Source of the DNA: Desulfopila sp.
GTDB lineage: Bacteria; Desulfobacterota; Desulfobulbia; Desulfobulbales; Desulfocapsaceae
Assembly: GCA_041642275.1 (NCBI GenBank)
Contig: JBEPWT010000004.1
Location: 6,708 to 70,707 of the forward strand
Length of the DNA: 64,000 bases
Reading direction: 5' to 3'
Shown: piece after piece, positions 960 to 58,607 of the stretch
Position numbering within the stretch: the first letter of the stretch is position 1
How the letters are laid out: the number at the start of each line of letters is the position of its first letter
Program-made: the position numbers and the translations under genes
The notes under the pieces: model-generated
What the model saw: the letters and a program-made list of their open reading frames with translations, nothing else
The model's database searches: none
Told to the model about the DNA's origin: nothing

Positions 960-998
960 AATCCTTCCTCCAAAAAAGTGGGTATATCAGCTATATTT

Positions 999-2342: not shown

Positions 2343-2407
2343 TGTCTTTATCTCCTTGTTATGGGCAGGGAGCAGTTCCAGAGAAACTGCTCCCCGTCTG
2401 AAGTGTT

Positions 2408-4621: not shown

Positions 4622-4673
4622 GCTTTCCTCCTTTTTTGAGGATGAATTCTATTATTGTCAATGTGTTGGACGC

Positions 4674-6704: not shown

Positions 6705-6768
6705 TTGAGGTTCCTCCTCATAAATGTTTCAAAGTATAGCTCATATGAAAAACAGGGACCAGACCGTC

Positions 6769-8322: not shown

Positions 8323-8500
8323 TTTAGCCTCCTTACAAATGAAAATTAGTCTCCTGAAGGCCGCGGACACTGTTTACTTTACGTAAACAGCAAGCCGCAC
8401 GTCGCTTCCTGACCTTCCCGTTTCTTTGTTGCCAATGACTACGAAAAAACATATATTGTTTTGATTTACATACCTTTTTTCCGGTCGTATCGAGCTGCTT

Positions 8501-10477
8501 TTACTCCGTCTCATTGGAGACGGCTTTTCGTTCTTCAATGCGAGCTTTCAGCCGCGGGAACTTATCAACATCGGTGTGCGGTATAAACATGGCGGCTATA
8601 TAATTGTCCATATAGGAAGGGGTTTCCGACAATTCAAAGTTGGTCATTTTTTTCGTGACCTCGACGACATCCTGACGTATACGGTTGGTGAGCGAGCTCA
8701 TCCTGGCTCCAAGAAGCGAACCGTTGCCGAGATAGGTCACCCGGGCTGGATCTGTTTCCGGCAGAAGCCCGATGGTCATTGCCTTTTCCAGGTCGATATA
8801 GCTGCCGAAACCGCCGGCGAGGATGATTTGCTCGATCATATCCACGGAGAGGCCGACCTCGTCGAGGAGCGTCATAAAGCCACTGTAGATTGCCGCCTTA
8901 GCCCTTATGAGATTGTCGATATCGATTTCGCTGATCGAGATATCCCGTCCTATCTGTGTTTCATCCTTCCAGGCAATAACATATTCCCAGACATCGTTAC
9001 GCTGCCTGATCCTGTCGGTTTTTATATCGGTATTGAATTTGCCGCTGCTGTCAATGATGCCCAACTCGTAGAGCACGGCGATCATGGTGATCAGGCCCGA
9101 ACCGCAGATACCCTTGGGTCTGACACTGCCGATGGTGATGATCATCGGCTCGAATGTCTGCGGATCTATCAGAAAATCCTCTATCCCCCCTTTTGCCGCC
9201 CGCATGCCGAACTCAACGCCTCCGCCCTCAAAGGCAGGGCCGGCGGAACAGGCGGCGCAGGCAAGCCAGTCCTTGTTGCCTATGACTATTTCGGCATTGG
9301 TGCCGATATCCATATACAGCGTCAACTCTTCCGTACGGTATAAGCCGGAACCCATGATACCAGCGACGATGTCGCCGCCGACATAACTCGAAATCTGCGG
9401 GTAAAGGAGAGCTATGGCGTGTTCATTGATGTTGATGCCTATGGATGCCGCCTGGAAAGGCGGATAGAGAGTAGCGGCGGGAACATAAGGCGACCTCCTG
9501 ATAAAGCTGGGATTAATACCCAGCAGCAGCTGGGTCATGGTGGTATTGCCGGCAATGGTGATGGTGGATATATCTTCTCTGTCAATTTGCGATTCATTGA
9601 AGATGATGTCGCAGGCTTCATTGATGGTGTCGATGATCAGCTGCTGCATCCTTGCCCGGCCTTCCGGCTTTTCGGCGACGATGATTCTGCTGATGACATC
9701 CTCTCCATAACTTATCTGTCCATTGAAAAGCCCCTTCTCCGCTTCGATTTTGCCGGTCTTCAGATTCATCAACTGGGCAAAAACCGTCGTGGTGCCGATA
9801 TCGAGGGCGATGGCATGGTTGTGATCGCTGGTGTCTCCTGCCTGTATATTGGTGACCCGGGTCTTGCCGTTTTCGCGTACCGGACGTACCAGCGTCGCCG
9901 TAACTTTAAATTCGTTTTCTCGTAGAATTTCAGGGAGCTTCCGAATGACCGGCATTGTCAGCTCGAGTTTGTGCCAGTCAGACTTTTCCTTGAGGGAGCG
10001 GACCAGTCGGTCAACATCGGCGAGGTTGTCATCGCTCGTTGGCGGCTGCAATTCCAGGTAGGTTTTTTTGACCGGGCTGATAAACAGCCCCTGCTCGCGA
10101 AGGTTTTCTATGTCCATATGCTGGACGGCGGCCGTGCAACGGGGAGGCGGTTTGACACTGAGAAGGCTCGAATCGACATCCGATTCGACCGGGATATGGA
10201 CGGTGATGCTTTCCTTGACAACAGCCAGACAGGCCAGTCGGTATCCTTTGGCAGCGTCTTCATCGGAGAGGCGTTCGCTGGTGCCTCCTTGCAGTTCGCC
10301 TTCTTTCAGAAGTACACGGCATTTACCGCATACACCCTCGCCACCGCAGGAAGCATTTATATGAACGCCGGCCTCCATGGCCACCTGTAACAGCTTTGTG
10401 CCTGGTTCGACCTCAATCTCTCGTTGATGTGGCAGAAAACGGACGGTGCATTTTTCCTTGCGTTCTTCCATGCTCAT
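8501..10477 (-). CDS. Corrinoid reductive activase (RACo-type: N-terminal 2Fe-2S ferredoxin + ASKHA ATPase domain)
   Basis: 658 aa. It has a plant-type 2Fe-2S motif (CGGEGVCGKCRV...LAC), then a large ASKHA-fold region (DIGTTTV..., DIGTNAEI...). It sits at the head of the acs cluster, as RACo-type corrinoid activase genes often do. Confidence 0.85.
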   Translation of the reverse strand: MSMEERKEKCTVRFLPHQREIEVEPGTKLLQVAMEAGVHINASCGGEGVCGKCRVLLKEGELQGGTSERLSDEDAAKGYRLACLAVVKESITVHIPVESDVDSSLLSVKPPPRCTAAVQHMDIENLREQGLFISPVKKTYLELQPPTSDDNLADVDRLVRSLKEKSDWHKLELTMPVIRKLPEILRENEFKVTATLVRPVRENGKTRVTNIQAGDTSDHNHAIALDIGTTTVFAQLMNLKTGKIEAEKGLFNGQISYGEDVISRIIVAEKPEGRARMQQLIIDTINEACDIIFNESQIDREDISTITIAGNTTMTQLLLGINPSFIRRSPYVPAATLYPPFQAASIGININEHAIALLYPQISSYVGGDIVAGIMGSGLYRTEELTLYMDIGTNAEIVIGNKDWLACAACSAGPAFEGGGVEFGMRAAKGGIEDFLIDPQTFEPMIITIGSVRPKGICGSGLITMIAVLYELGIIDSSGKFNTDIKTDRIRQRNDVWEYVIAWKDETQIGRDISISEIDIDNLIRAKAAIYSGFMTLLDEVGLSVDMIEQIILAGGFGSYIDLEKAMTIGLLPETDPARVTYLGNGSLLGARMSSLTNRIRQDVVEVTKKMTNFELSETPSYMDNYIAAMFIPHTDVDKFPRLKARIEERKAVSNETE

Positions 10478-10863
10478 ATTGTGATCACTTTTGATAGGTA
10501 CTGCGCTCTACACTGCTTCACAGCCGGCTCTCCCTGCATGCTTGTCAGAAAAAAGACCTGGTGCATCGAAGATGAACGTTCGTCTCCTTCTCCTCCCACC
10601 CGCCCTGAGCGGTGAGTTCTTCATCACCATGAGAAAAACCTTTTTTGGCTGCTCTCAAAGGGGTATGCCCTCTGCAGCACAAAAGAAATGCACCTGCTGT
10701 CTTTGTGAAAAGACCATAAATTGAAGGATACAAAGTAGCTATAACCTTTTCTGAGCATAAAAATCAATGCTTTTATAATAAAATTAGTTCTTGTTCAAAG
10801 ATTTTAAAAATAGTAGCATTCAATAATTAACATATCCGCTCACCCTTGACCCGGACCCCGCCC

Positions 10864-11451
10864 ATGGCCGCAAACGACACCATAAGCAACCAGGAGGCCG
10901 CTGAGCTCGAAGAGCTTCTGGCGAAAACCAAAAAAAAATCGGATTTCCAGCGGGTACAATGTATTTTACTGAGAGTACGCTACCACTTCAAGGCCTCCGA
11001 GGTAGCGGCAATGACAGGCCTGCGCCCTGGAACTGTGCGGCAGATCTGGTCTCTTTACAGGCGCGAGGGCAAAAGCGCGCTTTTCTGCAAGACCAGAGGA
11101 GGACGACGCAACGCCCATCTCGGCCGCGACGAGGAAAAGCTGTTTCTGAGGCCGTTTTTCAAGAAGGCCGAGCATGGCGGCGAACTCATTGTCTCCGAGA
11201 TACAGGAGGCCTACGAAACGCTTGTCGGCAAGAAGGTCCCCAAGTCCACTCTTTACAGGATGCTCTCACGCCACGGCTGGAAGCGCAAGCCCGGCAGATC
11301 GGCGAGACCTGAGGACAAGAGCGGCCCGCGCCCGGGAATGCATGAGTACTGGATCGAGGGATGCTCGCAGGTTCTGCACCCTGAACGCACGGGCAACATC
11401 TCACAACAGTGGCTCAACAGCACCCTTTCCAGCATGGTCAGACAAGACTGA
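10864..11451 (+). CDS. IS630-family transposase N-terminal (HTH / winged-helix) region only, with no DDE domain; remnant or domesticated regulator
   Basis: The pattern E..LE.LL...K....RV..ILL.....S..EVA...GL...TV.Q....Y...G......K.RGGR, followed by ST.YR.L.RHGW.RK, is the typical ORF1/N-terminus of IS630-type transposases. The ORF stops about 25 aa later, and only 176 nt remain before the next gene. The ATG at 10864 is preferred over the track's TTG at 10846. Confidence 0.6.
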   Translation: MAANDTISNQEAAELEELLAKTKKKSDFQRVQCILLRVRYHFKASEVAAMTGLRPGTVRQIWSLYRREGKSALFCKTRGGRRNAHLGRDEEKLFLRPFFKKAEHGGELIVSEIQEAYETLVGKKVPKSTLYRMLSRHGWKRKPGRSARPEDKSGPRPGMHEYWIEGCSQVLHPERTGNISQQWLNSTLSSMVRQD

Positions 11452-13328: not shown

Positions 13329-13656
13329 ACGCTCTCCCTTATCAATTCCAGCTGTTGCCATCAGTATTCTCTATCATCAAGGCCCTTGCCCGCGGCTCGT
13401 CGCAGTCAACGCCGGTCAAGGCGATGGGTCCTGATTATCCTTGCAATTTCCTGCTGTTCTACATTATATGTGAGACCTGAGGCTTTTACAAGGATTCAAA
13501 AATTCATTTTGTCATTTTGTTCTCAACACCTTAGGCGCCCTGCCAGGCCCTATGCGTTGTGATCAAAGAAGAAGGCCCGGCGGGGCTGTCGAGCCTTTAT
13601 ATCTGAGAGGGCGCCTGTCCCAACTGGTGGTAAGGCGGCAACAGCAGAGATTCTCC

Positions 13657-13923
13657 ATGAAGAAGAAAAAGGTCCTCTTCGCCAATACAACATTCATCAT
13701 TGTCTCTGTGGCAATACTTGTCTTTCTTCTGCGGGCGCCGGAGGAGACGACTCCGGGGCTGCCAGACGATGAAGATCACCGTCTGTTTTTCACCATCAAG
13801 AGCAAGAAAGAGGCGGAAAAATTTTGCGGCGACTGCCATGCGGCGGGAAAGACAAGCCCCCTGCCCCAGCACCATCCACCGGAATATCGCTGCCTCTTTT
13901 GCCACAAACGCAACATGGAGTAA
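13657..13923 (+). CDS. Small membrane-anchored di-haem c-type cytochrome (putative)
   Basis: 88 aa counting from the internal ATG at 13657 (MKKKKVLF...). It has one N-terminal hydrophobic helix and two CXXCH motifs (CGDCH, CLFCH). The upstream part of the track ORF (13552-13656) looks non-coding. Confidence 0.6.
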   Translation: MKKKKVLFANTTFIIVSVAILVFLLRAPEETTPGLPDDEDHRLFFTIKSKKEAEKFCGDCHAAGKTSPLPQHHPPEYRCLFCHKRNME

Positions 13924-21805: not shown

Positions 21806-22591
21806 TCACCTTCCTCTGAGGTTGAGGAAAACGTCGGCAAACCCTTCGCTCCGGCACAGGTTTGTTATTGCTATTCTATTATGAGTACGTGATATTCGCT
21901 GAAAATCCTGCTGACGAACCTCAAGAAGAAGCCCTTTTTCCACAGGCCGTGCACGGCATCCCGTAAAACCCAGATCCTCGAGCTGATCTTCAATCCTTTT
22001 CACCCTGTGCAGATCGCTGCCGCATATCCTGGGCAAATATGCCAGGCGGGTTGCCAGACATGAGTTCGAGGGCAGGTTATAATGGGAAATGCCAAAGAAC
22101 TTGGCCAGAAACCGTATCTCCTTCTTGCCTATTCCAGCCTGTTCCAGAGGTGCATATACCTGCAGTTCTTCGAGAACGGCATAGCCGGGCCGCTGCTGCC
22201 TGTGATCATCGGCATTCGTGCCGTCGAGCAGAATGGAAATGCCCTCCTGCGCCAGTCGTTTTTGGAAAAGGGTGTAGGTTTTCTTTTTGCAGTGATAACA
22301 TCTGGCGTGATCGTTGTTGATGAAATCCGGCCAGCTCAGAGGGTTGAGTTCGATAACTTCCAACGTGGCAATATCTTGAAAATCCGTGGTGAAAATTCTT
22401 TCGACATCGACACTACGGTTCAGCACTGACCGGCCGTGAAGGGCAAGGACATTGTCCTTTCCCAACACTTCCCCCGCAGCATGCAGCAGCAGGGAGGAGT
22501 CTATGCCGCCGGAAAAGGCCACGCCCGCACGTTCATAGGACCGGATCATACCCTTGAGATCCTCGTATTTCTGCAAAACCGGCGTGACCAT
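21806..22591 (-). CDS. PP-loop ATP pyrophosphatase of the LarE / TIGR00268-type sulfur-transferase family
   Basis: It has the SGGIDS PP-loop, a RCYHCKK motif, DGTNADD and SCLATR motifs. The start is set at the ATG at 22591, 4 nt after the upstream stop. The track ORF extends to 22681, which overlaps the upstream gene. Confidence 0.8.
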   Translation of the reverse strand: MVTPVLQKYEDLKGMIRSYERAGVAFSGGIDSSLLLHAAGEVLGKDNVLALHGRSVLNRSVDVERIFTTDFQDIATLEVIELNPLSWPDFINNDHARCYHCKKKTYTLFQKRLAQEGISILLDGTNADDHRQQRPGYAVLEELQVYAPLEQAGIGKKEIRFLAKFFGISHYNLPSNSCLATRLAYLPRICGSDLHRVKRIEDQLEDLGFTGCRARPVEKGLLLEVRQQDFQRISRTHNRIAITNLCRSEGFADVFLNLRGR

Positions 22592-22595
22592 GGCG

Positions 22596-23756
22596 TTATG
22601 AGCAGACACCGGGAAGGGTTTCGGCTGGTCTGTTGAGAAGGAAGCGGCCGTCGGCAATCCATCTCTTGAGCGTCTCGGCAATTTCCCGGGCCTTTACCAC
22701 GGAGGAAAGCGGGGCAGTCTGTACCTCCTTGCCGTTGACCATGATGGTCCCTGATTTGAGTTGATGATAGCTCACCTCGCCCAGGTCACGGGCGATACCA
22801 TTGGTGTAGTCATAGCCGTAGTCAACCACCTGGGTGAACAGCTCCTTATCGGAAACCCCGGTAAACAGGGCCATTTCAGCATCGAGAATGGGTATCGGTA
22901 TTCCCAGCCCCACTGCCAGGGTATTACCGTATCCGAGAATGGAAAGACCGCGAAGCCACTCAGCGGACATCTGCTTCAGATCCCCCTGCACCATCAGGGT
23001 ACCGGCAGGTTTTTTCGGCGCACCGTTTGCAGTTCGTTCGACATGGGGATTATGCTGGGTTCCATTCCAGGTGACATAGCCCATGCCTCCTCCTAAGAAA
23101 ATTCTCGTGCCGATACCGATGGTGCGGTAGCAGGGATCATTGAAAAGAGGGCTCAGTTCGCCGGCACTGCAGTAATTGGCGTTCTGACAGTTCCGCTTGA
23201 GCATGCCCATATAGGTGTATACGGTCTTATCCGTAAGATTGACGGCACAGTTGTAATTCTGGTAGCCATTCCGGGGGTTGCAGAGCAGGGCGTAGGGAAG
23301 ATCATCCAGGCTCACGTATTTTTTGAGTTTTCGCGCCTTGTAGCAGTCAGTGCCGTAGGCCTTTGCCTCCAGATATATCCTCTCCCCGCGCAGAAGGTCT
23401 TCAATGACATGGCCGCCTCCGTATTTGAACTCTCCGGGATAGATTTTGTTGAGCGGATCGTCTTCAGCCGGTTCGGTGGCGCCGAGAAAAGCATCAACGG
23501 CGGCCAGGCCGGCGTAACCGGGAACTTTATTGAACCAGACACGGGAGGTTTTTATGGTCGGCACCATCTGACCGATGTTGAAAAAGGCCCCGGATGAACA
23601 CATCGGGGCAAAGGTGCCGGTGGTGACGACATCAACCTTTTCCGCCGCCTGTTCCGGACCATTTTTTTTGACTATATCAACCATTTCCTCAGCAGTAACG
23701 ACAACTGCCTCTCCGGCGTGTATCTTTGCATTGATCTCTTCGTATGTCTTAGCCAT
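22596..23756 (-). CDS. COG1900/DUF39-family protein (homocysteine biosynthesis, aspartate-semialdehyde sulfurtransferase-like)
   Basis: 386 aa. It resembles the COG1900 domain over its full length (VVTTGTF..MCSSGAFFN..., GGGHVIEDL..., LCNPRN.YQNY...). There are no fused CBS domains and no adjacent NIL-ferredoxin gene. Confidence 0.75.
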   Translation of the reverse strand: MAKTYEEINAKIHAGEAVVVTAEEMVDIVKKNGPEQAAEKVDVVTTGTFAPMCSSGAFFNIGQMVPTIKTSRVWFNKVPGYAGLAAVDAFLGATEPAEDDPLNKIYPGEFKYGGGHVIEDLLRGERIYLEAKAYGTDCYKARKLKKYVSLDDLPYALLCNPRNGYQNYNCAVNLTDKTVYTYMGMLKRNCQNANYCSAGELSPLFNDPCYRTIGIGTRIFLGGGMGYVTWNGTQHNPHVERTANGAPKKPAGTLMVQGDLKQMSAEWLRGLSILGYGNTLAVGLGIPIPILDAEMALFTGVSDKELFTQVVDYGYDYTNGIARDLGEVSYHQLKSGTIMVNGKEVQTAPLSSVVKAREIAETLKRWIADGRFLLNRPAETLPGVCS

Positions 23757-29936: not shown

Positions 29937-31763
29937 TCAGACCAGATGGTCCATTATGTACCGTTTGCGGTCCGGCGTATTTTTTCCCATATAAAAGGTA
30001 AGCACCTTCGCCACCTGCGAGACCGAATCCATGGTCACATTCCGCAGTCTGATATCGGGCCCGATAAACTGCTTGAATTCACGAGGGGAGATCTCTCCCA
30101 GACCCTTGAACCGGGTCGTCTCCACATTCTTGGTCACCTTGCCCCGTCCTTGCAATTTGCGCGTAGCCGCGATTTTTTCCTTTTCCGAATAGCAATAGAT
30201 TGTCTCCTGCTTGTTGCGTACTCGAAAAATGGGGGTTTCGAGGATATAGATATGACCGAGCTTGACCAGCGGTTCGAAATAATGCAAAAAGAAGGTCAGC
30301 AGAAGATTGCGGATATGCAGCCCGTCCACGTCTGCATCGGTGGCGAGGATGACCTTGTCGAAGCGGAGGTTGGAGATGGAGTCCTCGATATCAAGGGCCC
30401 GCATAAGTGAGTACATCTCCTCGTTTTTGTACAGCAGCGCCAGCTTTTGCCCGTAGACGTTCATCGGTTTGCCTTTGAGCGAAAAAACAGCCTGGGTCAT
30501 CGGATCGCGCGAGGAGACGATCGAGCCGGCGGCAGACTGCCCCTCGGTGATGAAAATCATATTCTCCCTGCCTTCGGCGGAAGGTTTTTCTTTGGAGGGG
30601 TGATATTTGCAGTCTTTCAGCTGGGATATTTTCAGGGCAACCTTCTTGGCCTTAGCCCTGGCTTCCTTGCGCACGCTCTGCAGTTCCTTGCGTACCTTCT
30701 CGTTGCGCAGAATCTTGTCAATGAGTATTTCTGCCGCTGCGGTGTCTTTGTAGAGCGAACTGGAAACAGCATTTTTCACCGTATTGACAATCCACGAGCG
30801 TACTTCGGTGTTGCCAAGCTTGTTTTTGGTCTGCGACTCGAACACCGGGTCCTTGACCTTGATGGCAAGAGTGCCGACAACGCCGTCGCGGACATCCTTG
30901 CTGTCGAATTTTTTGCTGGAATATTCATTGATGCCCTTGAGCAGCCCTTCGCGAAAGGCGCTGAGATGCGTTCCGCCCTCGCTGGTATAGGTGCCGTTGA
31001 CAAAGGTATAGTAGGTATCGCCGTAGGAATCGGTGTGGGACAAGGCGAATTCGAGCGTGGCATCCTTGTAGTAAATCGGCGTATACAGTTCACCACCGTC
31101 CAGTTCCTTCTCCAGCAGATCAAGCAATCCCTTGCTGGAATAAAAGCATTCTTTGTTGAGATACAACTTCAAGCCGGCATTGAGATAGGCATATCTCCAC
31201 AGCCGTCTGGCAATAAAATCCAGATCGAAACAATAGTTCGGAAACAGCTGGGGGTCGGGTACAAACTCCATGAGGGTGCCGTCTTTCTCGGAACTCTCAC
31301 CTTCACTTTGCTCAATGAGTTTGCCGCGCTCGAAAAGCGCGGAGGAAAATTTTCCCTGGCGAAAGGCGGTCACCGTGAATTTTTTTGAAAGGGCGTTGAC
31401 GGCCTTGGTTCCGACGCCGTTAAGTCCTACGGAAAACTGGAAAACATCGGTATTGTACTTGGCGCCGGTGTTGATTGTCGATACACAGTCGACGATTTTA
31501 CCCAAAGGGATGCCCCTGCCGAAATCGCGAACCCGCACCTCGCCCTCTTCGGCGATAGTGATGTTTATACGTTTGCCGGCTCCCATGATAAATTCATCGA
31601 CGGCATTATCGACAATCTCTTTGAGCAAAATATAGATGCCGTCATCCTGGTGACTGCCGTCGCCAAGCCGGCCGATGTACATTCCCGGTCTTTTGCGTAT
31701 ATGCTCAAGGGAGCTGAGGGTTTTTATCTTGCTTTCGTCGTATATATCTGCGGATACACTCAT
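29937..31763 (-). CDS. parE: Type IIA DNA topoisomerase subunit B (ParE-like ATPase/TOPRIM subunit)
   Basis: 608 aa. GHKL ATPase motifs (EIVDNAVDE, GLNGVG), a TOPRIM domain (EGQSA.GS, ATDADVDG), and it is paired with the A subunit downstream. Confidence 0.88.
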   Translation of the reverse strand: MSVSADIYDESKIKTLSSLEHIRKRPGMYIGRLGDGSHQDDGIYILLKEIVDNAVDEFIMGAGKRINITIAEEGEVRVRDFGRGIPLGKIVDCVSTINTGAKYNTDVFQFSVGLNGVGTKAVNALSKKFTVTAFRQGKFSSALFERGKLIEQSEGESSEKDGTLMEFVPDPQLFPNYCFDLDFIARRLWRYAYLNAGLKLYLNKECFYSSKGLLDLLEKELDGGELYTPIYYKDATLEFALSHTDSYGDTYYTFVNGTYTSEGGTHLSAFREGLLKGINEYSSKKFDSKDVRDGVVGTLAIKVKDPVFESQTKNKLGNTEVRSWIVNTVKNAVSSSLYKDTAAAEILIDKILRNEKVRKELQSVRKEARAKAKKVALKISQLKDCKYHPSKEKPSAEGRENMIFITEGQSAAGSIVSSRDPMTQAVFSLKGKPMNVYGQKLALLYKNEEMYSLMRALDIEDSISNLRFDKVILATDADVDGLHIRNLLLTFFLHYFEPLVKLGHIYILETPIFRVRNKQETIYCYSEKEKIAATRKLQGRGKVTKNVETTRFKGLGEISPREFKQFIGPDIRLRNVTMDSVSQVAKVLTFYMGKNTPDRKRYIMDHLV

Positions 31764-32175
31764 TTTTTACCCATATACACTACATGAAGGTTTGAGGTTT
31801 CAAAGGTGGCCAATACTATTGTATTTGGTGTTTTTTATCAACATATCTCTTGTGGCGCCTGAAGATAAAACCATGTTCTATCAGGCGGGTCCCAACATCC
31901 GGTATGCTCTTCTGCCGTTTGTAAAAAAGGTGTTCTTCACCAAGGAAAATGGCGACCACTGTTTATTTTTCAACAAATTTGAGCTCTCCATGCACAAAAA
32001 CATATCCAATACATCAGAGCCGCCGCCGGGAAGACATTGGGCAACGGTTGGCCGCTGTTTGATTTTTTACGTTGCTGAAGCATTTCCCCCTTGTTGCTTG
32101 TTGCATTATTCTGTATTGTCTTGAGCTGTTTCTGCCGTCCTCTTGTTGGGAAAATATCTTTTGCAGTTCAACCGC

Positions 32176-36445: not shown

Positions 36446-37114
36446 CTACCACTCTATGGGCTCATGGCCATGATATTTCAAATAGTCGTTGCACCTTTTA
36501 AAGACATCGGAGCCCAGAAAACCCCTGTGTGCTGAAAGAGGAGACGGGTGGCTCGTTTTCAGCACCAGGTGCTTTTGCTCATCTATGAAGGCCGCTTTTT
36601 TCTGGGCAAAGGCGCCCCAGAGCATAAAAACCAGATGCCGCCGGTGAAGGGAGAGCGTCTCGATTATATTGTCGGTGACCTCGTGCCAGCCGATATTGGC
36701 GTGAGAATTGGGTTTTCCGGCGATGACGGTGAGACTGGCATTGAGCAGCAATACTCCCTGCAAAGCCCACCTGGTCAAGTCCGTCGAAAATACCCTCTGG
36801 GTATCACCGCCATAGATACTCCTGCGAACTTCCTTGAAGATATTGACCAGTGAGGGCGGAGCGGGAACACCTTCCACAACTGAAAAGCAAAGACCATGGG
36901 CTTCGGGGCCCAGACGGCCATGTTCGTTGAAGTAGGGATCCTGACCGAGAATAACGACCCGGACTCCATCGAAACCGGTCAGGCGCATGGAGTTGAAAAC
37001 ATTTTGCCGCAGCGGGTAGACCTTTTTGCCGGCGGCAAGCTCGCCGTATGCTTTTTCTACCAGCACTCTGTGCCGCCGCTGTTGAAGGAGCGGTACCTGT
37101 TCTTCCCACAACAT
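36446..37114 (-). CDS. ung: Uracil-DNA glycosylase, family 1
   Basis: 222 aa. Has GQDPY, the GLCFS context and HPSPLSA motifs. Confidence 0.92.
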   Translation of the reverse strand: MLWEEQVPLLQQRRHRVLVEKAYGELAAGKKVYPLRQNVFNSMRLTGFDGVRVVILGQDPYFNEHGRLGPEAHGLCFSVVEGVPAPPSLVNIFKEVRRSIYGGDTQRVFSTDLTRWALQGVLLLNASLTVIAGKPNSHANIGWHEVTDNIIETLSLHRRHLVFMLWGAFAQKKAAFIDEQKHLVLKTSHPSPLSAHRGFLGSDVFKRCNDYLKYHGHEPIEW

Positions 37115-37129
37115 TTCTAAATGTTCGGC

Positions 37130-38332
37130 CTAGGCCGTAACGATGGTATCCCGGTAATGAAAGTGGATTTTCCTTATCAGTGCGGCGAGTTCGTCCTCGT
37201 CTTTGACCTTCACCGCGGTGAATCTCTGATAAACATCACTGCTCATCTCTTTTTTCAGGCATTTCACCGGATCCAGAACGATTATGGTGCCATTGTTCTC
37301 GGTAACTTTTTTCAACCCTTTGTCTCCCTGCCTTGCATTTCCCGAGAGAAAAACAACCGCGGCACGTTCTCTGAAGACTTCAGCGACGGAGCCGATGGTC
37401 TGGTCTACCGGCGAAGATGAACCTGTATATGTATCTTTACATTTCAACGAATAGTCGGCACTGAAGGGTTTGAAGTAGATATTTTCGGTATCGCTGCCCA
37501 CATAGCAGTTGCCGCCCTGGATGGAGAGCCCGTCCTGTATCCTGACAATATTGATCGTGCTTATCTCATCGAGATACTGGGTAAAGGCGTCGACGTGTTC
37601 AACGTTGCCGTCAATGACGATCAGCACGGCGCCGTTCATGTCCTGCCGGAGGTGCGGCACCAGCTTGAGCAGGTTGATATAGGCGCCTTCACCGGCGACG
37701 ATAATGGAGAGGCAATTGGCTCGTCGGTACTTGTTTCGCTCCATAAGCGAAATATACTCGCCGCAGGCGCTGCAGATAACACCGCCCTGGTCCTCATTTT
37801 CCCGGAGGACAGCCTCCTCCTTGGATCCGCATTCTTCGCAAAACACCAGGGATTTGACTTTTCGCCTCCGCTCCTTCTTGAAAGGGCTCGGAGGAAAAAC
37901 AGGCTCGACGGCCTCCATCGACACCTCCGCAGCAGAAAGTACTTTATCGATGAGCTGCCGCTGCAATCCCTCCTGGTGGAAAATGTCCTGAAGTTTGTCC
38001 TTGCTGAAAAAATCGACCGCACCATTTTTCAGCGCATCGAAGCACCTGGCGGTACCTTCAGCGGTGAGTCTCGAAAACATGATGGTGGGCGTGGGAACAT
38101 GAATCATGAGATGCTGCAGGGCCGTCATGCCGTCCATCAACGGCATTTCGAAGTCCATGAGGATTACATCAGGTTTGCTTCTAAGGATGAGGCCGAGGGC
38201 CTCAATGCCGTTCACGGCCTCACCGATTACGGTGAGCCGCGGATGCATGTTCAGCAGCGTACTGAGGATCTTCCGATACTGGGCGGAGTCATCAACGATC
38301 ACCACTCGTACCATGTCTTTTTTTTCGCTCAT
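37130..38332 (-). CDS. Response-regulator receiver + CxxC-N19-CxxC zinc ribbon + CheB-methylesterase-like domain lacking the Ser-His-Asp triad
   Basis: The REC motifs are intact (VDDS, ILMDFEMP, FSKD). The ribbon is FCEECG...ICSACG. The C-terminal half aligns by eye to the CheB catalytic domain, but it reads VAGEGAY for GASTGG, IDGN for QHMP and ARQGD for GNDGA. Alternative starts are at 38362 and 38419. Confidence 0.7.
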   Translation of the reverse strand: MSEKKDMVRVVIVDDSAQYRKILSTLLNMHPRLTVIGEAVNGIEALGLILRSKPDVILMDFEMPLMDGMTALQHLMIHVPTPTIMFSRLTAEGTARCFDALKNGAVDFFSKDKLQDIFHQEGLQRQLIDKVLSAAEVSMEAVEPVFPPSPFKKERRRKVKSLVFCEECGSKEEAVLRENEDQGGVICSACGEYISLMERNKYRRANCLSIIVAGEGAYINLLKLVPHLRQDMNGAVLIVIDGNVEHVDAFTQYLDEISTINIVRIQDGLSIQGGNCYVGSDTENIYFKPFSADYSLKCKDTYTGSSSPVDQTIGSVAEVFRERAAVVFLSGNARQGDKGLKKVTENNGTIIVLDPVKCLKKEMSSDVYQRFTAVKVKDEDELAALIRKIHFHYRDTIVTA

Positions 38333-38393
38333 ATTTCCGGTGGTATAATTTCCATGTTGCATACCGTCATCCCGGCTACCATCTGCCCCCTCC

Positions 38394-39038
38394 TCAGCTG
38401 GCGGATGTATAGAGACCATGATCCTGTATATAGGCGTAGACCTGAGGCTGCAGACAGTCTTCAGGAAATTCTTCTGTTCCTATGGTCCGCCGGATCTGCG
38501 TCGATGAGACCTCTGGAATTTCCGCCTCGATGTAGTATAGATTCCTGCCGCTTATCCTGTTGCGCCAGTGGTCGCCATCCTGCAGATAGCCAAGAGAGTG
38601 AATGTAGGCGTCAATGTTCTCTGCTTCATAGCCTTGACGGTGGACGACGACGAAATGCACCTGCTGGAGAAGCCGGGGGTAGGCCTTCCAGGTCGGTATC
38701 TCGAGAAAGGCGTCGCTACCTATGATAAAATGGTATTGCCTGCCCGTGCTTTCTTCATCAGGGAGAGAAGAAAGCATATCGATTGAATAGGTGGGCGGCG
38801 GCAGATACCGCTCTATCTCCGAGACCGTGAACCTCTCTTCTCTCATCGTTGCTAAACGTAACATTTCCAGGCGATGGTGAAAAGATGTAATTTTGCGGCC
38901 GGTTTTATGAGGGGGTGATGCCGATGGAATAAAGACCACTTCGACAAGACCGCACCGCTGCATTGCCACATGCGCAAGGGAGGTGTGACCTTTGTGCACC
39001 GGATCGAATGCCCCGCCGAGTAAGCCGACGGCAGACAT
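38394..39038 (-). CDS. nadD: Nicotinate-nucleotide adenylyltransferase
   Basis: It has GGAFDP.H.GH and the typical NadD body. The start ATG at 39038 overlaps the proA stop (TGATG). The track ORF extends 76 codons further upstream inside proA. Confidence 0.88.
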   Translation of the reverse strand: MSAVGLLGGAFDPVHKGHTSLAHVAMQRCGLVEVVFIPSASPPHKTGRKITSFHHRLEMLRLATMREERFTVSEIERYLPPPTYSIDMLSSLPDEESTGRQYHFIIGSDAFLEIPTWKAYPRLLQQVHFVVVHRQGYEAENIDAYIHSLGYLQDGDHWRNRISGRNLYYIEAEIPEVSSTQIRRTIGTEEFPEDCLQPQVYAYIQDHGLYTSAS

Positions 39039-40297
39039 CAGTTGCGAACCTGTCCGTCGCCGAAGACGACGAATTTGCGGGTTGTCAGTTCTTCGAGACC
39101 CATCGGGCCATAGGCGTGAAGCTTGGTTGTACTGATCCCTATTTCCGTTCCCAGCCCCAGCTGGGCGCCATCGTTGAAACGGCTTGAGGTATTTACCATA
39201 ACCGCCGAGGCGTCTATCTGCCGGACAAAGGTGTTGGCCAGGGAATAATTTTCGGTGAGTATGCATTCGGTATGATGCGATCCGTACTCGCGGATATATT
39301 CTCTGGCCTCATCATAGCCGGTCACCACCTTCATGATCATCGCCAGATCAAGGAACTCGGTGCCCCAATCGGATGCACCAGCCTCTTCGACATGTTTCGA
39401 GAGGCTGCGGGTTTTTTCACATCCCAGTATGCGCACCCCCTGCTCCTGCAGTGCCGCGACTATCACCGGGACATAGGCAGCGGCGATATCTTCATGCACC
39501 AGAAGTCCCTCCAGGGCATTGCAGACGCCGGGCCGCTGCACCTTGCTGTTGAGGATGATCGGTGTCGCTTTGTCCAGATCCGCTTGTTTGTCGACATAAA
39601 TGTGGCAGACACCCTTATAATGTTTAAGCACCGGTATGGTGCTGTTTTTGGCCACGAAACGAATCAGCCCTTCTCCTCCCCGGGGGATGATGAGATCAAT
39701 ATAATCATCCTGCCTGAGCAGCAGGGCTACGGCGTCCCGGTCGGTGTCGGCGACAAGCTGGACGCCGTTGGCGTCCATGCCGGAAATCCGCAGCGCCTCC
39801 TGGATAACTCCGGCGAGAGCGATATTGGAATGTATTGCCTCCGACCCGCCTCTGAGAATGACACTGTTGCCGGCTTTCAGGCAGAGGGCGGCGGCATCGA
39901 TTGTGACATTTGGACGCGATTCGTATATCATGGCTATAACGCCAAGAGGCACGCTCATACGGCCGACCATCATACCGTTCGGACGCCGGGCCATGGATCC
40001 GATCGACCCCACCGGATCATCGAGTGCTGCGACCTCGTGAAGTCCGGCAATCATGGCCTCAACAACTTCATCGGTCAGCGCAAGCCTGTCGAGCATGGCT
40101 TGAGAAAGAGCGTTGCGACGGCCATTTTCGATATCCCTGCCGTTTTCTCTCTGGATGTGTTCCTTTCGCTCTTCAAGAAGGCCGGCTATCTTTTCAAGCG
40201 TGGCATTCTTCATCGCTGTTGATGCAAAGAGCATCTGCTGGGAAGCGGTTTGGGCTTTTCTGCATATATCGATTATGTGACTTTCAAGTGATTCCAT
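39038..40297 (-). CDS. proA: Gamma-glutamyl phosphate reductase
   Basis: 419 aa, full-length ProA-like aldehyde dehydrogenase fold with the catalytic Cys context (GVCNALE). Confidence 0.93.
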   Translation of the reverse strand: MESLESHIIDICRKAQTASQQMLFASTAMKNATLEKIAGLLEERKEHIQRENGRDIENGRRNALSQAMLDRLALTDEVVEAMIAGLHEVAALDDPVGSIGSMARRPNGMMVGRMSVPLGVIAMIYESRPNVTIDAAALCLKAGNSVILRGGSEAIHSNIALAGVIQEALRISGMDANGVQLVADTDRDAVALLLRQDDYIDLIIPRGGEGLIRFVAKNSTIPVLKHYKGVCHIYVDKQADLDKATPIILNSKVQRPGVCNALEGLLVHEDIAAAYVPVIVAALQEQGVRILGCEKTRSLSKHVEEAGASDWGTEFLDLAMIMKVVTGYDEAREYIREYGSHHTECILTENYSLANTFVRQIDASAVMVNTSSRFNDGAQLGLGTEIGISTTKLHAYGPMGLEELTTRKFVVFGDGQVRN

Positions 40298-43114: not shown

Positions 43115-43369
43115 TTATTCAGGCTGAATACTTACTCGCTTTTTGTTTTTGCCGAACATCTCAAACTTGACGATACCATCTGATTTGGCATAGAGCGTAT
43201 AGTCTCTGCCGCATCCGACATTGGTACCGGGGTGAATCCTGGTTCCAAGCTGCCTGACAATGATGCTTCCGGCTCTTACGTTTTCACCGCCGAACTTCTT
43301 GACGCCCCGCCTTTGTCCTTTACTGTCTCTGCCGTTTCTTGAACTACCGCCAGCTTTTTTATGTGCCAT
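43115..43369 (-). CDS. rpmA: 50S ribosomal protein L27
   Basis: 84 aa. [15 protein letters not shown]...LGVK canonical N-terminus. Confidence 0.96.
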
Positions 43370-43430
43370 GATGAACTCCTTCGTTTACCGCTTCCCCTCG
43401 AATGTTTTTCGACTGTGCATTCGAGACTTT

Positions 43431-43742
43431 TTATGCCGATATTTCCTCTATAGCCAGTGCCGTATAGAATTGGCGATGACCCTGCCTGAGGCGGTAGCCC
43501 TTTCTTCTCTTCTTCTTGAAGACAATGATTTTTTTGGCTTTTCCCTGCTCTACTATTTTCGCTTTTACAGTGGCATTTTCCAGGAGTGGCGTGCCGATGT
43601 CGACGGTGCCGTCGCCGACGACCATGAGAACGTCATCGAGTTCAACCGTGTCACCTATTTCGCCGTTGATTTTCTCAACGCGCAACCGATCTCCCTGGGC
43701 CACCTGATATTGTTTGCCTCCGGTACGGACTATAGCATACAT
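43431..43742 (-). CDS. rplU: 50S ribosomal protein L21
   Basis: 103 aa. MYAIV..GGKQY.V canonical N-terminus. Upstream of rpmA. Confidence 0.96.
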
Positions 43743-43841
43743 TATATTTTCCTCATCTGCGCAAGTTATAGTGTTCTATTGAGACTGTCACCAAACTTTT
43801 AATTTGACACCGTTCTCACCGAATTGTCAATATATATTTTG

Positions 43842-44051: not shown

Positions 44052-44498
44052 TCAGGTGGTGTATCCCAGCCTTTCAAATTCTTTCTGCTTTCGGATAGCA
44101 CAGGCCTTATTGAAAGCATTCTTCTTGCCGTGCTTGGATATGGAAACAGAGGTTTTCCCCTGCTTACCGCTTTCAGTAACCCAACTTACTTCATACCGGT
44201 TGAGTTTTTCATTGAGTCTCACTCCGACAACACCGGTGCCGGAATTGCTCACGGTCACCATGTGTTTATTCGTCCTGATTTTTCCGAGGCGTCGTTCGGT
44301 CTTGTCTCTCCAGGCTATGGCCGAGAGCAGGCTTGAGTAACGCCCTCCACATTTTTTATCTGAGAAAAACTTGGAATGTGTTTTTCCCAGAAAACGTACA
44401 CGAACATACCAGCCGTGAGTTCTTTTTGACTCCTGATCTATCCTGGCGATATCTTTGTGCTTTTCCAAAAGTATATTCTGCTTGTTGTCTTCTTCCAT
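44052..44498 (-). CDS. AP2/ERF-type DNA-binding protein with two AP2-like repeats
   Basis: The first repeat is IDQESKRTHGWYVRVRFLGKTHSKFFSDKKCGG...AIAWRD. The second is GVVGVRLNEKLNRYEVSWV..GKQGKTSVSISKHGKKNAF.KA..IR. The ATG at 44498 follows AGGGA. The track starts at the GTG at 44522. Confidence 0.7.
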   Translation of the reverse strand: MEEDNKQNILLEKHKDIARIDQESKRTHGWYVRVRFLGKTHSKFFSDKKCGGRYSSLLSAIAWRDKTERRLGKIRTNKHMVTVSNSGTGVVGVRLNEKLNRYEVSWVTESGKQGKTSVSISKHGKKNAFNKACAIRKQKEFERLGYTT

Positions 44499-44796
44499 CT
44501 TTTTCCCTTGTTGTTGTTGCACTACGAAACATTACTTTGTTACTGTACGAAGGCCTCTATATCTTTGCCTCTCGGCATGTATCCGGAGCATGGGTCATCT
44601 CATTCAGATGAGAAGAGCGCTTGTCGTGACATACCGGCCAACCTAAGTAGTTGGTCAGGTGTAAGCTGTCAATAGTTTTTTGCACCTTCGACGTGTGTGG
44701 TAAGAATGAAATCCCCTGGCCTCTAACAACCTAAGGCATCTCCTTAATTAATGCTAGTTTTTTATTGCTTTTTTTTACAATTAATCAAAAATAGCC

Positions 44797-45214: not shown

Positions 45215-45378
45215 ACCAAGTTTTAGTCGCAGATCAACATACCTGTCTGCAGACTATCAGCGACAGTCGCTTCGACCACTGTCACCTCTTCGCTCTTGCC
45301 TGAACAGAGATGCAGGCGAGGGCCACGTACCAGGGGTTTCCTTGAAGCCCTGCAACCATGAGTCCACGAGGAGGAACC

Positions 45379-45828
45379 ATGCGTAGATACGAAACGATCT
45401 ATATCCTTCGTCCAACCCTGAACGAAGAAGAGATCAATACCGTAGTTGAAAAAGCTCAAGAGACCATCACCAGCAACAACGGAAAAATCATTGAACTTGA
45501 TCGCTGGGGCATGAGAAAACTCGCCTATCAGATCAAAAAAGAGTCTCAAGGATTCTACATATTCTGTGACTATTCCGCCATTCCTGAAGCTGTAACCGAA
45601 ATGGAACGAAGGTTTCGCATCGACGATGCTGTTCTTCGCTACATGACGGTTAAAACCGCCGACGTTATCACCGACGAAGAGATTATCGAAGCCACTGCCC
45701 GCATCGCCGACAAGCAGGTGGTCGAAGAGGAAACTGAAGAGTCCGCCGCTGGAGAGAAACAACCAGTCCAACAGACGCCTTCAACCTCCGAGAAATCAGA
45801 GGAAGTCGAAAAAAGTGAAGAAGCATAA
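45379..45828 (+). CDS. rpsF: 30S ribosomal protein S6 with acidic C-terminal tail
   Basis: MRRYETIYILRP... canonical. The ATG at 45379 is preceded by GAGGAGG. The track ORF starts 7 codons earlier. Confidence 0.95.
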   Translation: MRRYETIYILRPTLNEEEINTVVEKAQETITSNNGKIIELDRWGMRKLAYQIKKESQGFYIFCDYSAIPEAVTEMERRFRIDDAVLRYMTVKTADVITDEEIIEATARIADKQVVEEETEESAAGEKQPVQQTPSTSEKSEEVEKSEEA

Positions 45829-56793: not shown

Positions 56794-57060
56794 ATGAAAA
56801 GCTGGCAAGAGATACTCAGCGAGAGTGTAACAACTTTCACCGATCTGCAAAAGCATTTAAATTGCAATACTACCGCATTAGAAGATGTTATAGCAACGTT
56901 TCCAATGCGCATTAACCCATATTTTTTAGACCTCATCAAAGTGCACGGAGCTCCGTTATGGCGGCAAGCCGTTCCGGATGTGAAAGAAATTCAAGATACT
57001 GTCTGTCTTATCGTAAAGAAACCTTCAACCTCAGCAGTCCCACCTCGAGGAGCCCAATGA
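56794..57060 (+). pseudogene. N-terminal remnant of a KamA/EpmB-family (lysine 2,3-aminomutase-like) radical-SAM gene
   Basis: The first ~68 aa follow the family's N-terminal pattern (W...L..S.....DL...L.......V....PMRI.PY.L.LI.....PL..QAVP...E). The similarity then ends and a stop follows. The CxxxCxxC radical-SAM core is absent, and the next gene starts at 57057. Confidence 0.5.
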
Positions 57061-58607
57061 ACGTCGATCCCATTCTGGAAAAGGTCCTGTATTCGCAAGA
57101 TTTGCCGACACTGCCGACGGTGGCCTCAAAACTCATCTCGCTGACCTCCAAGGAAGATACCACCCTCTCGGACATCGCCGAACTGATATCCAAGGATATC
57201 TCCCTCTCGGCGAAGATTCTCAAGGTTTCCAATTCGGCTTTCTACAGTTTTCCGCAACAGATCGGCTCCATCCATCAGGCGGTATCCATTCTCGGCACCA
57301 ATGCCGTCAGGAGCCTGGTTTTGTCTTTTTCCTTTCTTTCCATCAGATCCGGGAAAAAGGCCAGCCATTTTAATTTCGAACTGTTCTGGCAGCGTTCTCT
57401 CGCTCTCGCCGTCGCCTCGAAACTGATCCTGGAAAAGGTCAAGGGCGCCAACACCGAGGAAATCTTCATTTCCGGTCTGCTGCAAAACCTGGGGGAGCTG
57501 ATATTTGCCAGGACTTTTTCCGAAGAATATGACAAGGTCCTGGAAGACGTTGAGGAAAATCAGCACGACACTATTCTGGCAGAAGAAAACATCATAGGCG
57601 CCAATCACAGCTTCATAGGCTTCGAGGTTGCCAGACACTGGGGATTTCCCGAAGCGCTGCTTCTTCCCATCCGCCACCACCATGCACCGGAGGAGTATAC
57701 AGGTCGGGACATCAAGATAAGGCACACCATCAGCGCAGTCTATCTTGCTGATATTCTAATAAATATTCTCTACTCTGAGAAGCCCGAGGACTATCACAAG
57801 CAGTTTCGCAAAGAAGCGCGGAGCCAGCTCAAGCTCAACCCCGGCGATATCGAGTCGATCCTTGAAGAAATTCACAGGCATGTGGAAATGGCCGGCGAAT
57901 ATTTCGGCTTGAAAATTAAGAACACCAGATCGATTCAGGATATTCTCCAGGAGGCCAATATTCGCCTCAGCCTCATGAATCTCGATTACGACCAGATGAA
58001 TAAACAGCTGATTCAGACCAAGGTGAAGCTTGAAAAACTCACGGAAGAACTCGAGGAAAAAAACAGAATTCTCGACAATCTCGCCAACATCGACGGTCTT
58101 ACGGAGGTATACAATCACCGGTATTTTCAAAACTTTCTCGAACAGGAAATAGAGAGGGCGGAACGCAAGGACACCACCCTCTCACTGCTGCTTATCGATA
58201 TCGATCACTTCAAGAAATTCAACGACAATTACGGTCATCAGGCAGGCGATTTCGTCCTCAAAAAGTTCTGCGAAAGACTTAAAAAAAACCTGCGCAAGTA
58301 TGATATCCTTTCCCGCTATGGCGGCGAAGAATTTGTCGTTATTCTGCCGGAAACAGAGCTGGACGAGGCCTTCGCCGTCGCTGAAAAGCTGCGGCTGGCC
58401 CTCGCCGAGAGCAGTTTTGACGACGGTCAGGAGCAGTACAGTGTCACCGCCAGTTTCGGCATATCCACATGCAGACCGGCAACAGAAGATAGCTTCAGCA
58501 AGAATGAGTTCATCGGCAAAGCCGATCACGCCCTCTATACCGCCAAGGAAAACGGCAGAAACCAGTCTGCCGTCTACCAGCCGAAGAAAAAATGGTTTTC
58601 CTTCTGA
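57057..58607 (+). CDS. HDOD-domain + coiled-coil + GGDEF diguanylate cyclase
   Basis: It has an N-terminal HDOD domain (LPTLP.VA.KLI.L......L.DIA.LI..D..L.AKILK..NSAFY), a coiled-coil linker, and a GGDEF domain with an intact GGEEF site. I chose the ATG at 57057, which overlaps the upstream stop (ATGA). Confidence 0.85.
   Translation: MNVDPILEKVLYSQDLPTLPTVASKLISLTSKEDTTLSDIAELISKDISLSAKILKVSNSAFYSFPQQIGSIHQAVSILGTNAVRSLVLSFSFLSIRSGKKASHFNFELFWQRSLALAVASKLILEKVKGANTEEIFISGLLQNLGELIFARTFSEEYDKVLEDVEENQHDTILAEENIIGANHSFIGFEVARHWGFPEALLLPIRHHHAPEEYTGRDIKIRHTISAVYLADILINILYSEKPEDYHKQFRKEARSQLKLNPGDIESILEEIHRHVEMAGEYFGLKIKNTRSIQDILQEANIRLSLMNLDYDQMNKQLIQTKVKLEKLTEELEEKNRILDNLANIDGLTEVYNHRYFQNFLEQEIERAERKDTTLSLLLIDIDHFKKFNDNYGHQAGDFVLKKFCERLKKNLRKYDILSRYGGEEFVVILPETELDEAFAVAEKLRLALAESSFDDGQEQYSVTASFGISTCRPATEDSFSKNEFIGKADHALYTAKENGRNQSAVYQPKKKWFSF

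Follow-up and report, generated by a model that had tools for sequence, protein, structure and literature searches.

The chemotaxis enzyme CheB, a protein-glutamate methylesterase/glutaminase (EC 3.1.1.61 and 3.5.1.44) that acts on glutamyl residues of chemoreceptors and is represented in the Protein Data Bank (PDB) by 1a2o and 1chd from Salmonella/E. coli and by 3sft and 3t8y from T. maritima, is a response regulator in which a receiver domain precedes a catalytic domain with the CheB fold. In other response regulators, such as PopA and FimX, the GGDEF or EAL output is degenerate and the receiver controls a catalysis-dead, conserved domain that serves interaction or ligand binding. Here we describe a gene, called X in the following, which appears to follow the same logic with a fold and ligands unrelated to those of the PopA and FimX type. 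It lies in a stretch of 64,000 nucleotides (nt) from Desulfopila sp. (GenBank assembly GCA_041642275.1, contig JBEPWT010000004.1, positions 6,708 to 70,707 of the forward strand), hereafter the window, where its longest open reading frame (ORF) occupies positions 37130-38419 of the minus strand and encodes 429 amino acids (aa), the stop codon being included in the coordinates. From its sequence, we take X to be a CheB-derived pseudo-enzyme response regulator with a cysteine ribbon in its linker, belonging to a broader, unrecognised clade of degenerate relatives. It would then show cleanly how the enzymatic output of a response regulator can turn into a non-catalytic module that is still selected and has gained a metal ribbon.

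The catalytic residues of CheB are Ser164, His190 and Asp286 in E. coli numbering (PMC3180692). X shares with CheB the order of receiver and CheB fold and the receiver motif D-x-E-M-P-x-M-D-G, and it departs from CheB in its catalytic-domain motifs: Gly, Asp and Gln stand at the positions of Ser164, His190 and Asp286, GxGEGxY replaces GxSTGGP, and CLxKxM replaces VVxGMP. Further differences are the ribbon, a four-cysteine (Cys4) insert of about 45 residues in the linker, a K-D instead of a K-P pair in the receiver, scores below the NCBIfam cut-offs for CheB, and a location in a housekeeping string where no cheR, cheA or methyl-accepting chemotaxis protein (MCP) gene was found. No description of such proteins turned up in the open-access literature on ribbon-bearing CheB, triad-less CheB, CheB of Desulfobulbales or cable bacteria, or PATAN-CheB proteins, which is weak evidence of absence.

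Receiver, CheB-like domain and former active site

The receiver (REC) domain of X is of the CheB type and covers residues 36-160 (37940-38314, minus strand). Pfam Response_reg matches residues 39-141 with 62.9 bits (E 3.7e-17), and the closest PDB sequences are the receivers of CheB (3t8y, 4.5e-25; 1a2o, 2.9e-25). The domain contains the motifs VDDS (with the acidic pair D43 and D44), ILMDFEMP (D89), IMFS (S116) and FSKD (K140). Asp89, the predicted phospho-acceptor (codon 38153-38155, minus strand), lies within ILMDFEMPLMDG and aligns with CheB Asp56 (LTLDVEMPRMDG); its position is at least 90% conserved, and in an alignment of 67 family sequences the acidic pair, the acceptor Asp, the Ser and the Lys are all invariant or at least 90% conserved. 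Judged by its sequence, the receiver keeps every residue required for Asp phosphorylation, so that the acidic pocket, acceptor Asp, Ser/Thr and Lys expected of a CheB receiver are all in place, and an earlier reading of the DNA made without database searches (the sequence-only reading) was right to call the domain competent. One receiver feature sets the family apart: in at least 90% of its members, Asp and not the usual Pro comes after the conserved Lys (K140-D141, in FFSKD, window positions 37997-38011), whereas sister groups have K-P.

The C-terminal domain (residues 236-429; 37133-37714, minus strand) has the CheB fold and lacks the Ser-His-Asp triad. Pfam CheB_methylest matches residues 240-414 over profile positions 3-173 of 174, at 82 bits against a cut-off of 24 (E 5.6e-23), and both Response_reg and a near full-length CheB_methylest are thus significant in a profile search of X. 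The NCBIfam models of CheB (NF001965 and NF009206) match the protein from end to end, although at scores below their cut-offs (188.1 versus 293 bits and 152.6 versus 342 bits, respectively). In the AlphaFold2 model of X, computed from the 67-sequence family alignment, the mean predicted local distance difference test score is 86.6 and the predicted template modelling (TM) score 0.84. A Foldseek search of the PDB with this model returns full-length, closed CheB 1a2o as its top match (E 4e-25, target-normalised TM 0.76), while the modelled C-terminal domain superposes on 3sft with a TM of 0.90 and a root-mean-square deviation of 2.2 Å and on 1chd with a TM of 0.85. The claim that this half of the protein tracks the catalytic domain of CheB block by block is therefore borne out by profile and predicted fold alike. 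Since one domain could yield a TM of at most about 0.55, the whole-chain value of 0.76 indicates that both domains take up a CheB-like relative orientation, and the model suggests a closed, two-domain arrangement resembling 1a2o, to which the ribbon adds four strands within the linker.

The fate of the triad was read from three alignments that agree with each other: an L-INS-i alignment with E. coli and haloarchaeal CheB, an alignment to a profile hidden Markov model (HMM) of canonical CheB built from 48 CheBs with Ser-His-Asp, and an L-INS-i alignment with sister groups; the E. coli reference sequence was verified against PDB 1a2o. None of the three places a Ser-His-Asp triad in X. The Ser164 position is taken by Gly243 (37691-37693, minus strand; GASTGG in CheB, VAGEGA in X), the His190 position by Asp270 (37610-37612, minus strand) and the Asp286 position by Gln364 (37328-37330, minus strand), the latter two as placed by the sequence alignments. 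The sequence-only reading had all three residues substituted, which stands, as do its quoted motifs VAGEGAY, IDGN and ARQG, all present in X, and its assignments of His to Asp270 and Asp to Gln364; its assignment of the nucleophile to Glu244 does not, the correct residue being Gly243. This register follows from the comparison of the sister-group motif GASEGG with GAGEGG in the family. An elbow register shifted by three residues, seen in two large MAFFT alignments that held a single canonical CheB, was overruled by the 48-CheB HMM and by GASEGG, and no conserved Ser, Thr or Cys is found at the nucleophile elbow in any register within three residues to either side. With Gly at the nucleophile position, and Asp and Gln at the others in the window's own clade, X should be unable to act as a Ser-His-Asp methylesterase or deamidase. 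It thus has the PF01339 homology and fold of CheB and neither the triad nor an NCBIfam score above threshold.

The domain has retained a pattern of conservation of its own. Across 67 sequences, the invariant or near-invariant residues of the C-terminal domain are (in the numbering of a 410-aa form of the protein) G224, G226, H256, S340, G341, G346, C368 and K371, and these sit in the four loops after the strands that bear S164, H190, D286 and the GMP motif in CheB. By topology, such a placement points to a conserved cleft where the active site was.

Linker ribbon, family and sister groups

The ribbon of X (CEECG-x18-CSAC; 37763-37840, minus strand) consists of C194, C197, C216 and C219 and lies in the linker between the receiver and the catalytic-type domain. 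A linker CxxC ribbon had been recognised before, with a spacing of 19 residues that has to be corrected to 18. All four cysteines, in the form CxxC-x(16-20)-CxxC, are present in each of the 120 best homologues, which upholds the conservation expected of orthologues; the first, second and fourth do not vary in 185-186 of the 186 sequences of the family, and the first three are kept in 82 genome loci. Curated Pfam zinc-ribbon families give only sub-threshold generic matches, at residues 193-225, the best for the isolated ribbon being GATA (22.3 bits versus a cut-off of 26.8). The MJ0042-type Zn_ribbon_4 (PF13717) was considered as an identity for the ribbon and dropped, since it does not match at E<=1.

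We define the ribbon-in-linker family by a REC domain, then an FCE[ED]CG-x16-20-CxxC ribbon, then a CheB fold in which Gly occupies the position of Ser164, all of which X displays. A profile search of 1.84 billion cluster representatives yields about 20 clusters of this family at 50% identity, 640 database proteins match X at E<=1e-5, and when each GTDB species is represented by one genome, at least 223 of these species-level genomes encode a relative. Among the best 80 genomes, all named ones are of the Desulfobulbales type (Desulfopila, Desulfocapsaceae, Desulfofustis, Desulforhopalus, Desulfotalea, Desulfoprunum and Desulfocapsa), and cultured hosts include Desulfofustis glycolicus DSM 9705, Desulfopila aestuarii DSM 18488, Desulfoprunum benzoelyticum DSM 28570 and Desulfocapsa sulfexigens. 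As databases label such proteins CheB methylesterases and X occurs in 223 or more species-level genomes, censuses of chemosensory systems in Desulfobulbales count too many adaptation enzymes, and the same inflation probably extends to the wider degenerate clade.

Loss of the nucleophile runs through the whole family. In 186 distinct sequences, the Ser164 position holds Gly in about 165, is unaligned in the rest and is never Ser, in agreement with the triad loss anticipated for orthologues. The His190 position varies more (His about 43%, Tyr about 29%, Asp about 16%), and the Asp286 position is Asp in 145 of the 186 and Gln in 22, the Gln being confined to the window's own clade. A Ser that is never present next to a variable His and Asp fits a single loss of the nucleophile at the root of the family followed by drift of the other two residues, and this is the pattern such a history would be expected to leave. 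The domain is not decaying: against the closest orthologue (locus L003; loci and proteins of the comparison are cited by L and P numbers), omega is 0.18 for the CheB-like domain, 0.06 for REC and 0.05 for the ribbon, and purifying selection acts on all three parts, the CheB-like domain included. Within Desulfobulbales, conservation is highest in the receiver.

Gene neighbourhood is conserved as well, as the sequence-only reading had led one to ask: the gene immediately before X is nadD in 71 of 74 loci, and the one immediately after it is ung in 66 of 78. The orthologues P0007, P0062 and P0059 served to inspect contig surroundings. A functional tie of X to its NAD-related neighbours nadD and yjeF/Nnr was considered, but their adjacency is explained by inheritance, since synteny extends over the entire stretch from rplU to lptF throughout the order. 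No cheR, cheA, cheW or MCP gene occurs within 10 kb to either side of X in the four Pfam-annotated loci L001, L002, L089 and the paralog L064; the remaining loci, about 78, were probed with ten window proteins only, with no che scan. Nor was any che or MCP gene found among those window ORFs that were scanned with Pfam or matched by synteny, a scope in which LeuRS, DusB, FolD, PriA and GalU/HrpA were named by eye only and outside of which lie about six short ORFs of the greedy list (123-182 aa; for example 13552-13923, 31675-32124, 43260-43802 and 45223-45771). Within these limits the context proposed at the outset, a string of obgE-proB-proA-nadD-X-ung free of che and MCP genes, is confirmed, and the company of cheR, cheA, cheW or MCP genes that a CheB gene would be expected to keep is missing from the window and the four loci.

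In the profile search, the ribbon-in-linker clusters are followed by a large set of CheB-like regulators that belong neither to this family nor to canonical CheB. On the canonical CheB HMM, 57 of 145 representatives have Ser-His-Asp, and the rest read GYD, SYD, AHD, AYD, GHD or many other combinations. In the degenerate clade, G[AG][SAG]EGGY and C[LF]xK[ED]M replace GxSTGGP and VVxGMP, and by these sequence features the X family falls within a broader clade of CheB-like regulators, so far undescribed, whose triads are degenerate. Its members (P0142, P0149, P0273 and P0144 among them) resemble X in the Glu after the nucleophile position, in CLxKEM and in a conserved Arg before the DG turn, and several share the FCEECG...CxxCG ribbon module; unlike X, they carry the ribbon at the N-terminus or not at all, have K-P in the receiver and are encoded inside chemosensory clusters, and several retain the Ser, as Ser-Tyr-Asp or Ser-His-Asp.

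In one sister group of about 410 aa, FCEECG...CxxCG stands at the N-terminus. When these N-terminal ribbons are searched with an HMM built from the linker ribbon of the family, it matches them with E values of 5e-5 to 1e-10 (Z=1000), 8 of 10 at 3.4e-7 or better, and matches neither shuffled controls nor the Zn_ribbon_4 ribbon of a ParA-like protein in locus L083. This likeness in sequence shows one ribbon module that has been relocated between N-terminus and linker. The N-terminal ribbon of sister protein P0273 scores 29.6 against Zn_ribbon_4, for which the cut-off is 30.3.

Genes of three sister-group loci sit in chemosensory settings, which speaks for a chemosensory ancestry of X. L083 (8146-20464) encodes, in order, a cNMP-PATAN protein, a ribbon-REC-CheB-like protein, CheW, CheY, a multi-Hpt CheA of 1541 aa, a PATAN-REC-CheB-like protein, a REC-CheB-like protein and the ParA-like ATPase, whose ribbon is the Zn_ribbon_4 just mentioned. 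In L087, genes for MglA-like and Roadblock proteins are followed by those for a ribbon-REC-CheB-like protein, a Cache-HAMP-MCP and CheW, and L088 contains CheB-like, MCP, CheW, CheY and CheA genes. No CheR was seen in the L083, L087 and L088 stretches, and L083 also lacks an MCP within 10 kb to either side, which raises the question of a role for the CheB fold in pathways that possibly work without methylation. As a separate observation, the MglA-like small GTPase and Roadblock/LC7 (MglB-like) genes of L087 (3363-4449) stand just upstream of the chemosensory cluster.

More distant ribbon-in-linker relatives (L084:1692-3379 and L086:4182-6674) have lost the acidic pair of the receiver and kept the ribbon. 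Their genes come immediately after one for an FHA-domain protein (the two overlap by 4 nt in L084), and in L086 also after a PP2C phosphatase gene, which hints at Ser/Thr phosphorylation as the input in place of His-Asp.

Candidate functions

A link to cyclic di-GMP (c-di-GMP) is suggested by gene neighbours in one part of the family. In a Desulfocapsa-like clade, ung is absent and a stand-alone PilZ gene follows X after 30-70 nt in eight loci (L040:11218-11643, L059:11215-11607, L065:11220-11612, L078:11246-11605, and L070, L076, L079 and L081), with a remnant in a ninth. The PilZ proteins are 119-141 aa long, match Pfam at E 1e-12 to 4e-14 and have intact c-di-GMP-binding motifs (RRxxxR and D[IV]SGGG), and in L059 the PilZ gene precedes one for a hybrid sensor kinase (dCache_3-PAS-HisKA-HATPase-REC). 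That a PilZ adaptor can bind a chemotaxis adaptation enzyme has a precedent in MapZ and CheR1 of Pseudomonas aeruginosa (PMC6370697). The two cases are alike in that one X clade encodes a stand-alone PilZ protein directly after a relative of a chemotaxis adaptation enzyme, and they differ in that X is a CheB-like pseudo-enzyme, not a CheR, that the association is genomic only, and that the window's clade has ung in this place. The PilZ neighbour is therefore a candidate partner that could be tested directly. The PilZ-type clade also encodes a conserved protein of about 440 aa that starts MRFIADLHIHSLYSRATSK (L040:11927-13267; L063:11261-12556; L073:11419-14766) and has no Pfam match as a stand-alone protein; in L071 and L073 it is the N-terminal part of a fusion to a UvrD-type helicase.

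A second copy of X, in a Desulfopila metagenome-assembled genome (L064, 6664-14516), lies in a signalling cluster that encodes, in order, a 737-aa Hpt+HATPase_c kinase, CheY, CheX, the X-paralog itself, a Cache-GGDEF-EAL protein and a phosphonate-type binding protein. This signalling context is not a general rule, as its nearest relative, P0059, sits at an ordinary nadD-ung site. Within X, an RxxD motif (R293-I-Q-D296) was considered as a c-di-GMP I-site and set aside, being too short to count as evidence.

We consider it moderately probable that X is an orphan CheB-derived response regulator, that is, a pseudo-enzyme adaptor phosphorylated by a CheA-type kinase and possibly linked to c-di-GMP. 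X is conserved across Desulfobulbales with its catalytic Ser gone, so that it is probably a binding module controlled by phosphorylation and not an enzyme. In such a scheme, Asp89 would be phosphorylated by a CheA-type kinase encoded elsewhere in the genome, and phosphorylation would loosen the packing of the receiver on the old active-site face, as in CheB, and open the closed state. The opening would expose the remodelled cleft, with the conserved residues specific to the family, together with the ribbon, and the surface so exposed could bind a partner. The likeliest candidates are parts of chemosensory arrays or of c-di-GMP signalling, for instance a receptor helix bundle or an adaptor of the PilZ type. 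The sequence-only reading had likewise arrived at a pseudo-enzyme or binding module, a view that holds up in the light of the family-wide change from Ser to Gly, of the later decay of His and Asp in sub-lineages, as a lost nucleophile would lead one to expect, and of purifying selection; its wording 'rather than chemotaxis' goes too far, because the closest relatives sit in MCP/CheW/CheA clusters, and X may well belong to a chemosensory or c-di-GMP pathway, though not as a methylesterase.

Several points weigh against the adaptor. The loss of activity is read from the protein sequence alone, and the gathering of conserved residues at the former active site follows from loop topology, not from distances. 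The association with PilZ is confined to one clade and that with GGDEF-EAL to one paralog, neither of them in the window's own clade, and the 64-kb window shows no che or MCP gene among the ORFs scanned with Pfam or matched by synteny. Finally, C305 and C387 (429-aa ORF) are invariant, C387 in 185 of 186 sequences, and His275 is at least 90% conserved, which leaves room for a different chemistry.

This last point is the basis of an alternative in which the CheB-fold domain is still an enzyme, re-tooled as a thiol esterase or deamidase that uses Cys387 (the equivalent of CheB Cys309) or Cys305 together with His275. In the 410-aa numbering these residues are C368, C286 and H256; all three border the former active site in their loops, and the domain that holds them is under purifying selection. 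The conservation of Cys387 need not be catalytic, because many canonical CheBs, which depend on serine, likewise have a Cys at the Cys309 position (motif sCvvyGMP), while His275 is not universal in sister groups and the elbow residue at Glu244 varies among E, L, Q, D and K, and we regard a thiol enzyme as rather unlikely. That X is a functional CheB methylesterase, serving a chemotaxis system whose other genes lie elsewhere in the genome, would agree with its domain order and fold and with the name 'chemotaxis protein CheB' that its homologues bear in the sources. Replacement of all three triad residues, absence of the Ser throughout the family, scores under both NCBIfam CheB cut-offs and the lack of cheR, cheA and MCP genes within 10 kb to either side of the four Pfam-annotated loci make this extremely improbable.

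Two further alternatives start from the ribbon. It could be a nucleic-acid-binding finger, and X a regulator that, depending on its phosphorylation, controls how the obgE-proBA-nadD-ung string is transcribed or translated, for which one may cite the weak Pfam likeness of the ribbon to GATA, TFIIB and DksA/TraR-type fingers and the strict synteny with housekeeping genes. We find this very unlikely, given that the matches to such fingers are all under the curated cut-offs, that X has no helix-turn-helix or other DNA-binding domain, that relatives within chemosensory clusters bear this ribbon module at their N-terminus, and that synteny over a single order can be simple inheritance. The Cys4 site might instead be a redox or metal sensor, with rubredoxin-like Fe or labile Zn, to which the receiver would be secondary. 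The two knuckles share the sequence CxxCG with those of rubredoxin, the hosts live as strict anaerobes and have carbon monoxide dehydrogenase/acetyl-CoA synthase (CODH/ACS), and the distant relatives have kept the ribbon after losing the acidic pocket of the receiver. The Rubredoxin profile is, however, absent from the best 25 of the 27 matches of the isolated ribbon at E<=1, and the strong conservation of the receiver (omega 0.06) hardly fits a secondary role, so that a sensor of this kind seems improbable as well.

The phospho-regulated adaptor also allows a broader formulation, which we offer as speculation and think unlikely: X and the G[AG][SAG]EGGY clade would be an unrecognised type of response-regulator output in which the CheB fold has changed from an eraser into a phospho-gated reader or adaptor, coupled to c-di-GMP through PilZ, and which in Desulfobulbales has become a constitutive core gene linking a CheA-type kinase to a non-motility output. 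If so, the targets of the reader or adaptor would be chemoreceptor-type helices or other glutamyl-modified or acidic targets.

Gene map and other features of the window

The coordinates and strand first given for the ORF of X are exact, whereas its first Met is improbable as the true start. Translation probably begins at M30 (38332, giving 400 aa) or M20 (38362, 410 aa). The NCBI call for X, P0001, has 410 aa from M20 at 100% identity, while the 400-aa form from M30 resembles the orthologues P0002, P0003 and P0005, and the nearest orthologues are 396-400 aa long. Directly upstream lies nadD (nicotinate-nucleotide adenylyltransferase; 38394-39266, minus strand; Pfam CTP_transf_like) and directly downstream ung (uracil-DNA glycosylase; 36446-37114, minus strand; Pfam UDG), in a gene order of obgE, proB, proA, nadD, X, ung, CBS, yjeF/nnr, DUF166 and lptF/G. 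The stop codon of nadD is 29-59 nt from the likely start of X, and 15 nt separate the stop codon of X from the start of ung; on this sequence arrangement, nadD, X and ung are likely to be co-transcribed. Given its close packing among housekeeping genes, with nadD and ung on either side, X is probably transcribed constitutively, with its activity controlled through phosphorylation.

Elsewhere in the window, a predicted diguanylate cyclase, an HDOD-GGDEF protein, is encoded at 56958-58607 (plus strand), about 19 kb from X, with no link to X established. Pfam gives no match at E<=1e-5 for two ORFs, 10846-11451 (plus strand, 201 aa) and 21806-22681 (minus strand, 291 aa); as the latter overlaps a called HcyBio gene in its 3' part, it may be spurious. 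Terminator-like patterns are frequent between 35900 and 43500 (24 sites, versus 8.0 +/- 2.6 from shuffles), mostly within coding sequence and on either strand, and the excess may be an effect of composition. A CODH/ACS (Wood-Ljungdahl) cluster at 66-10477 (minus strand) comprises genes for a pterin-binding methyltransferase, two CdhD-type subunits, ACS beta, CODH and a RACo activase. Between mazG and rplU, a stand-alone protein of 156 aa (44052-44522, minus strand) carries a C-terminal AP2 DNA-binding domain (Pfam, 40.9 bits), and its gene occupies the identical position in L001, L002 and L089.

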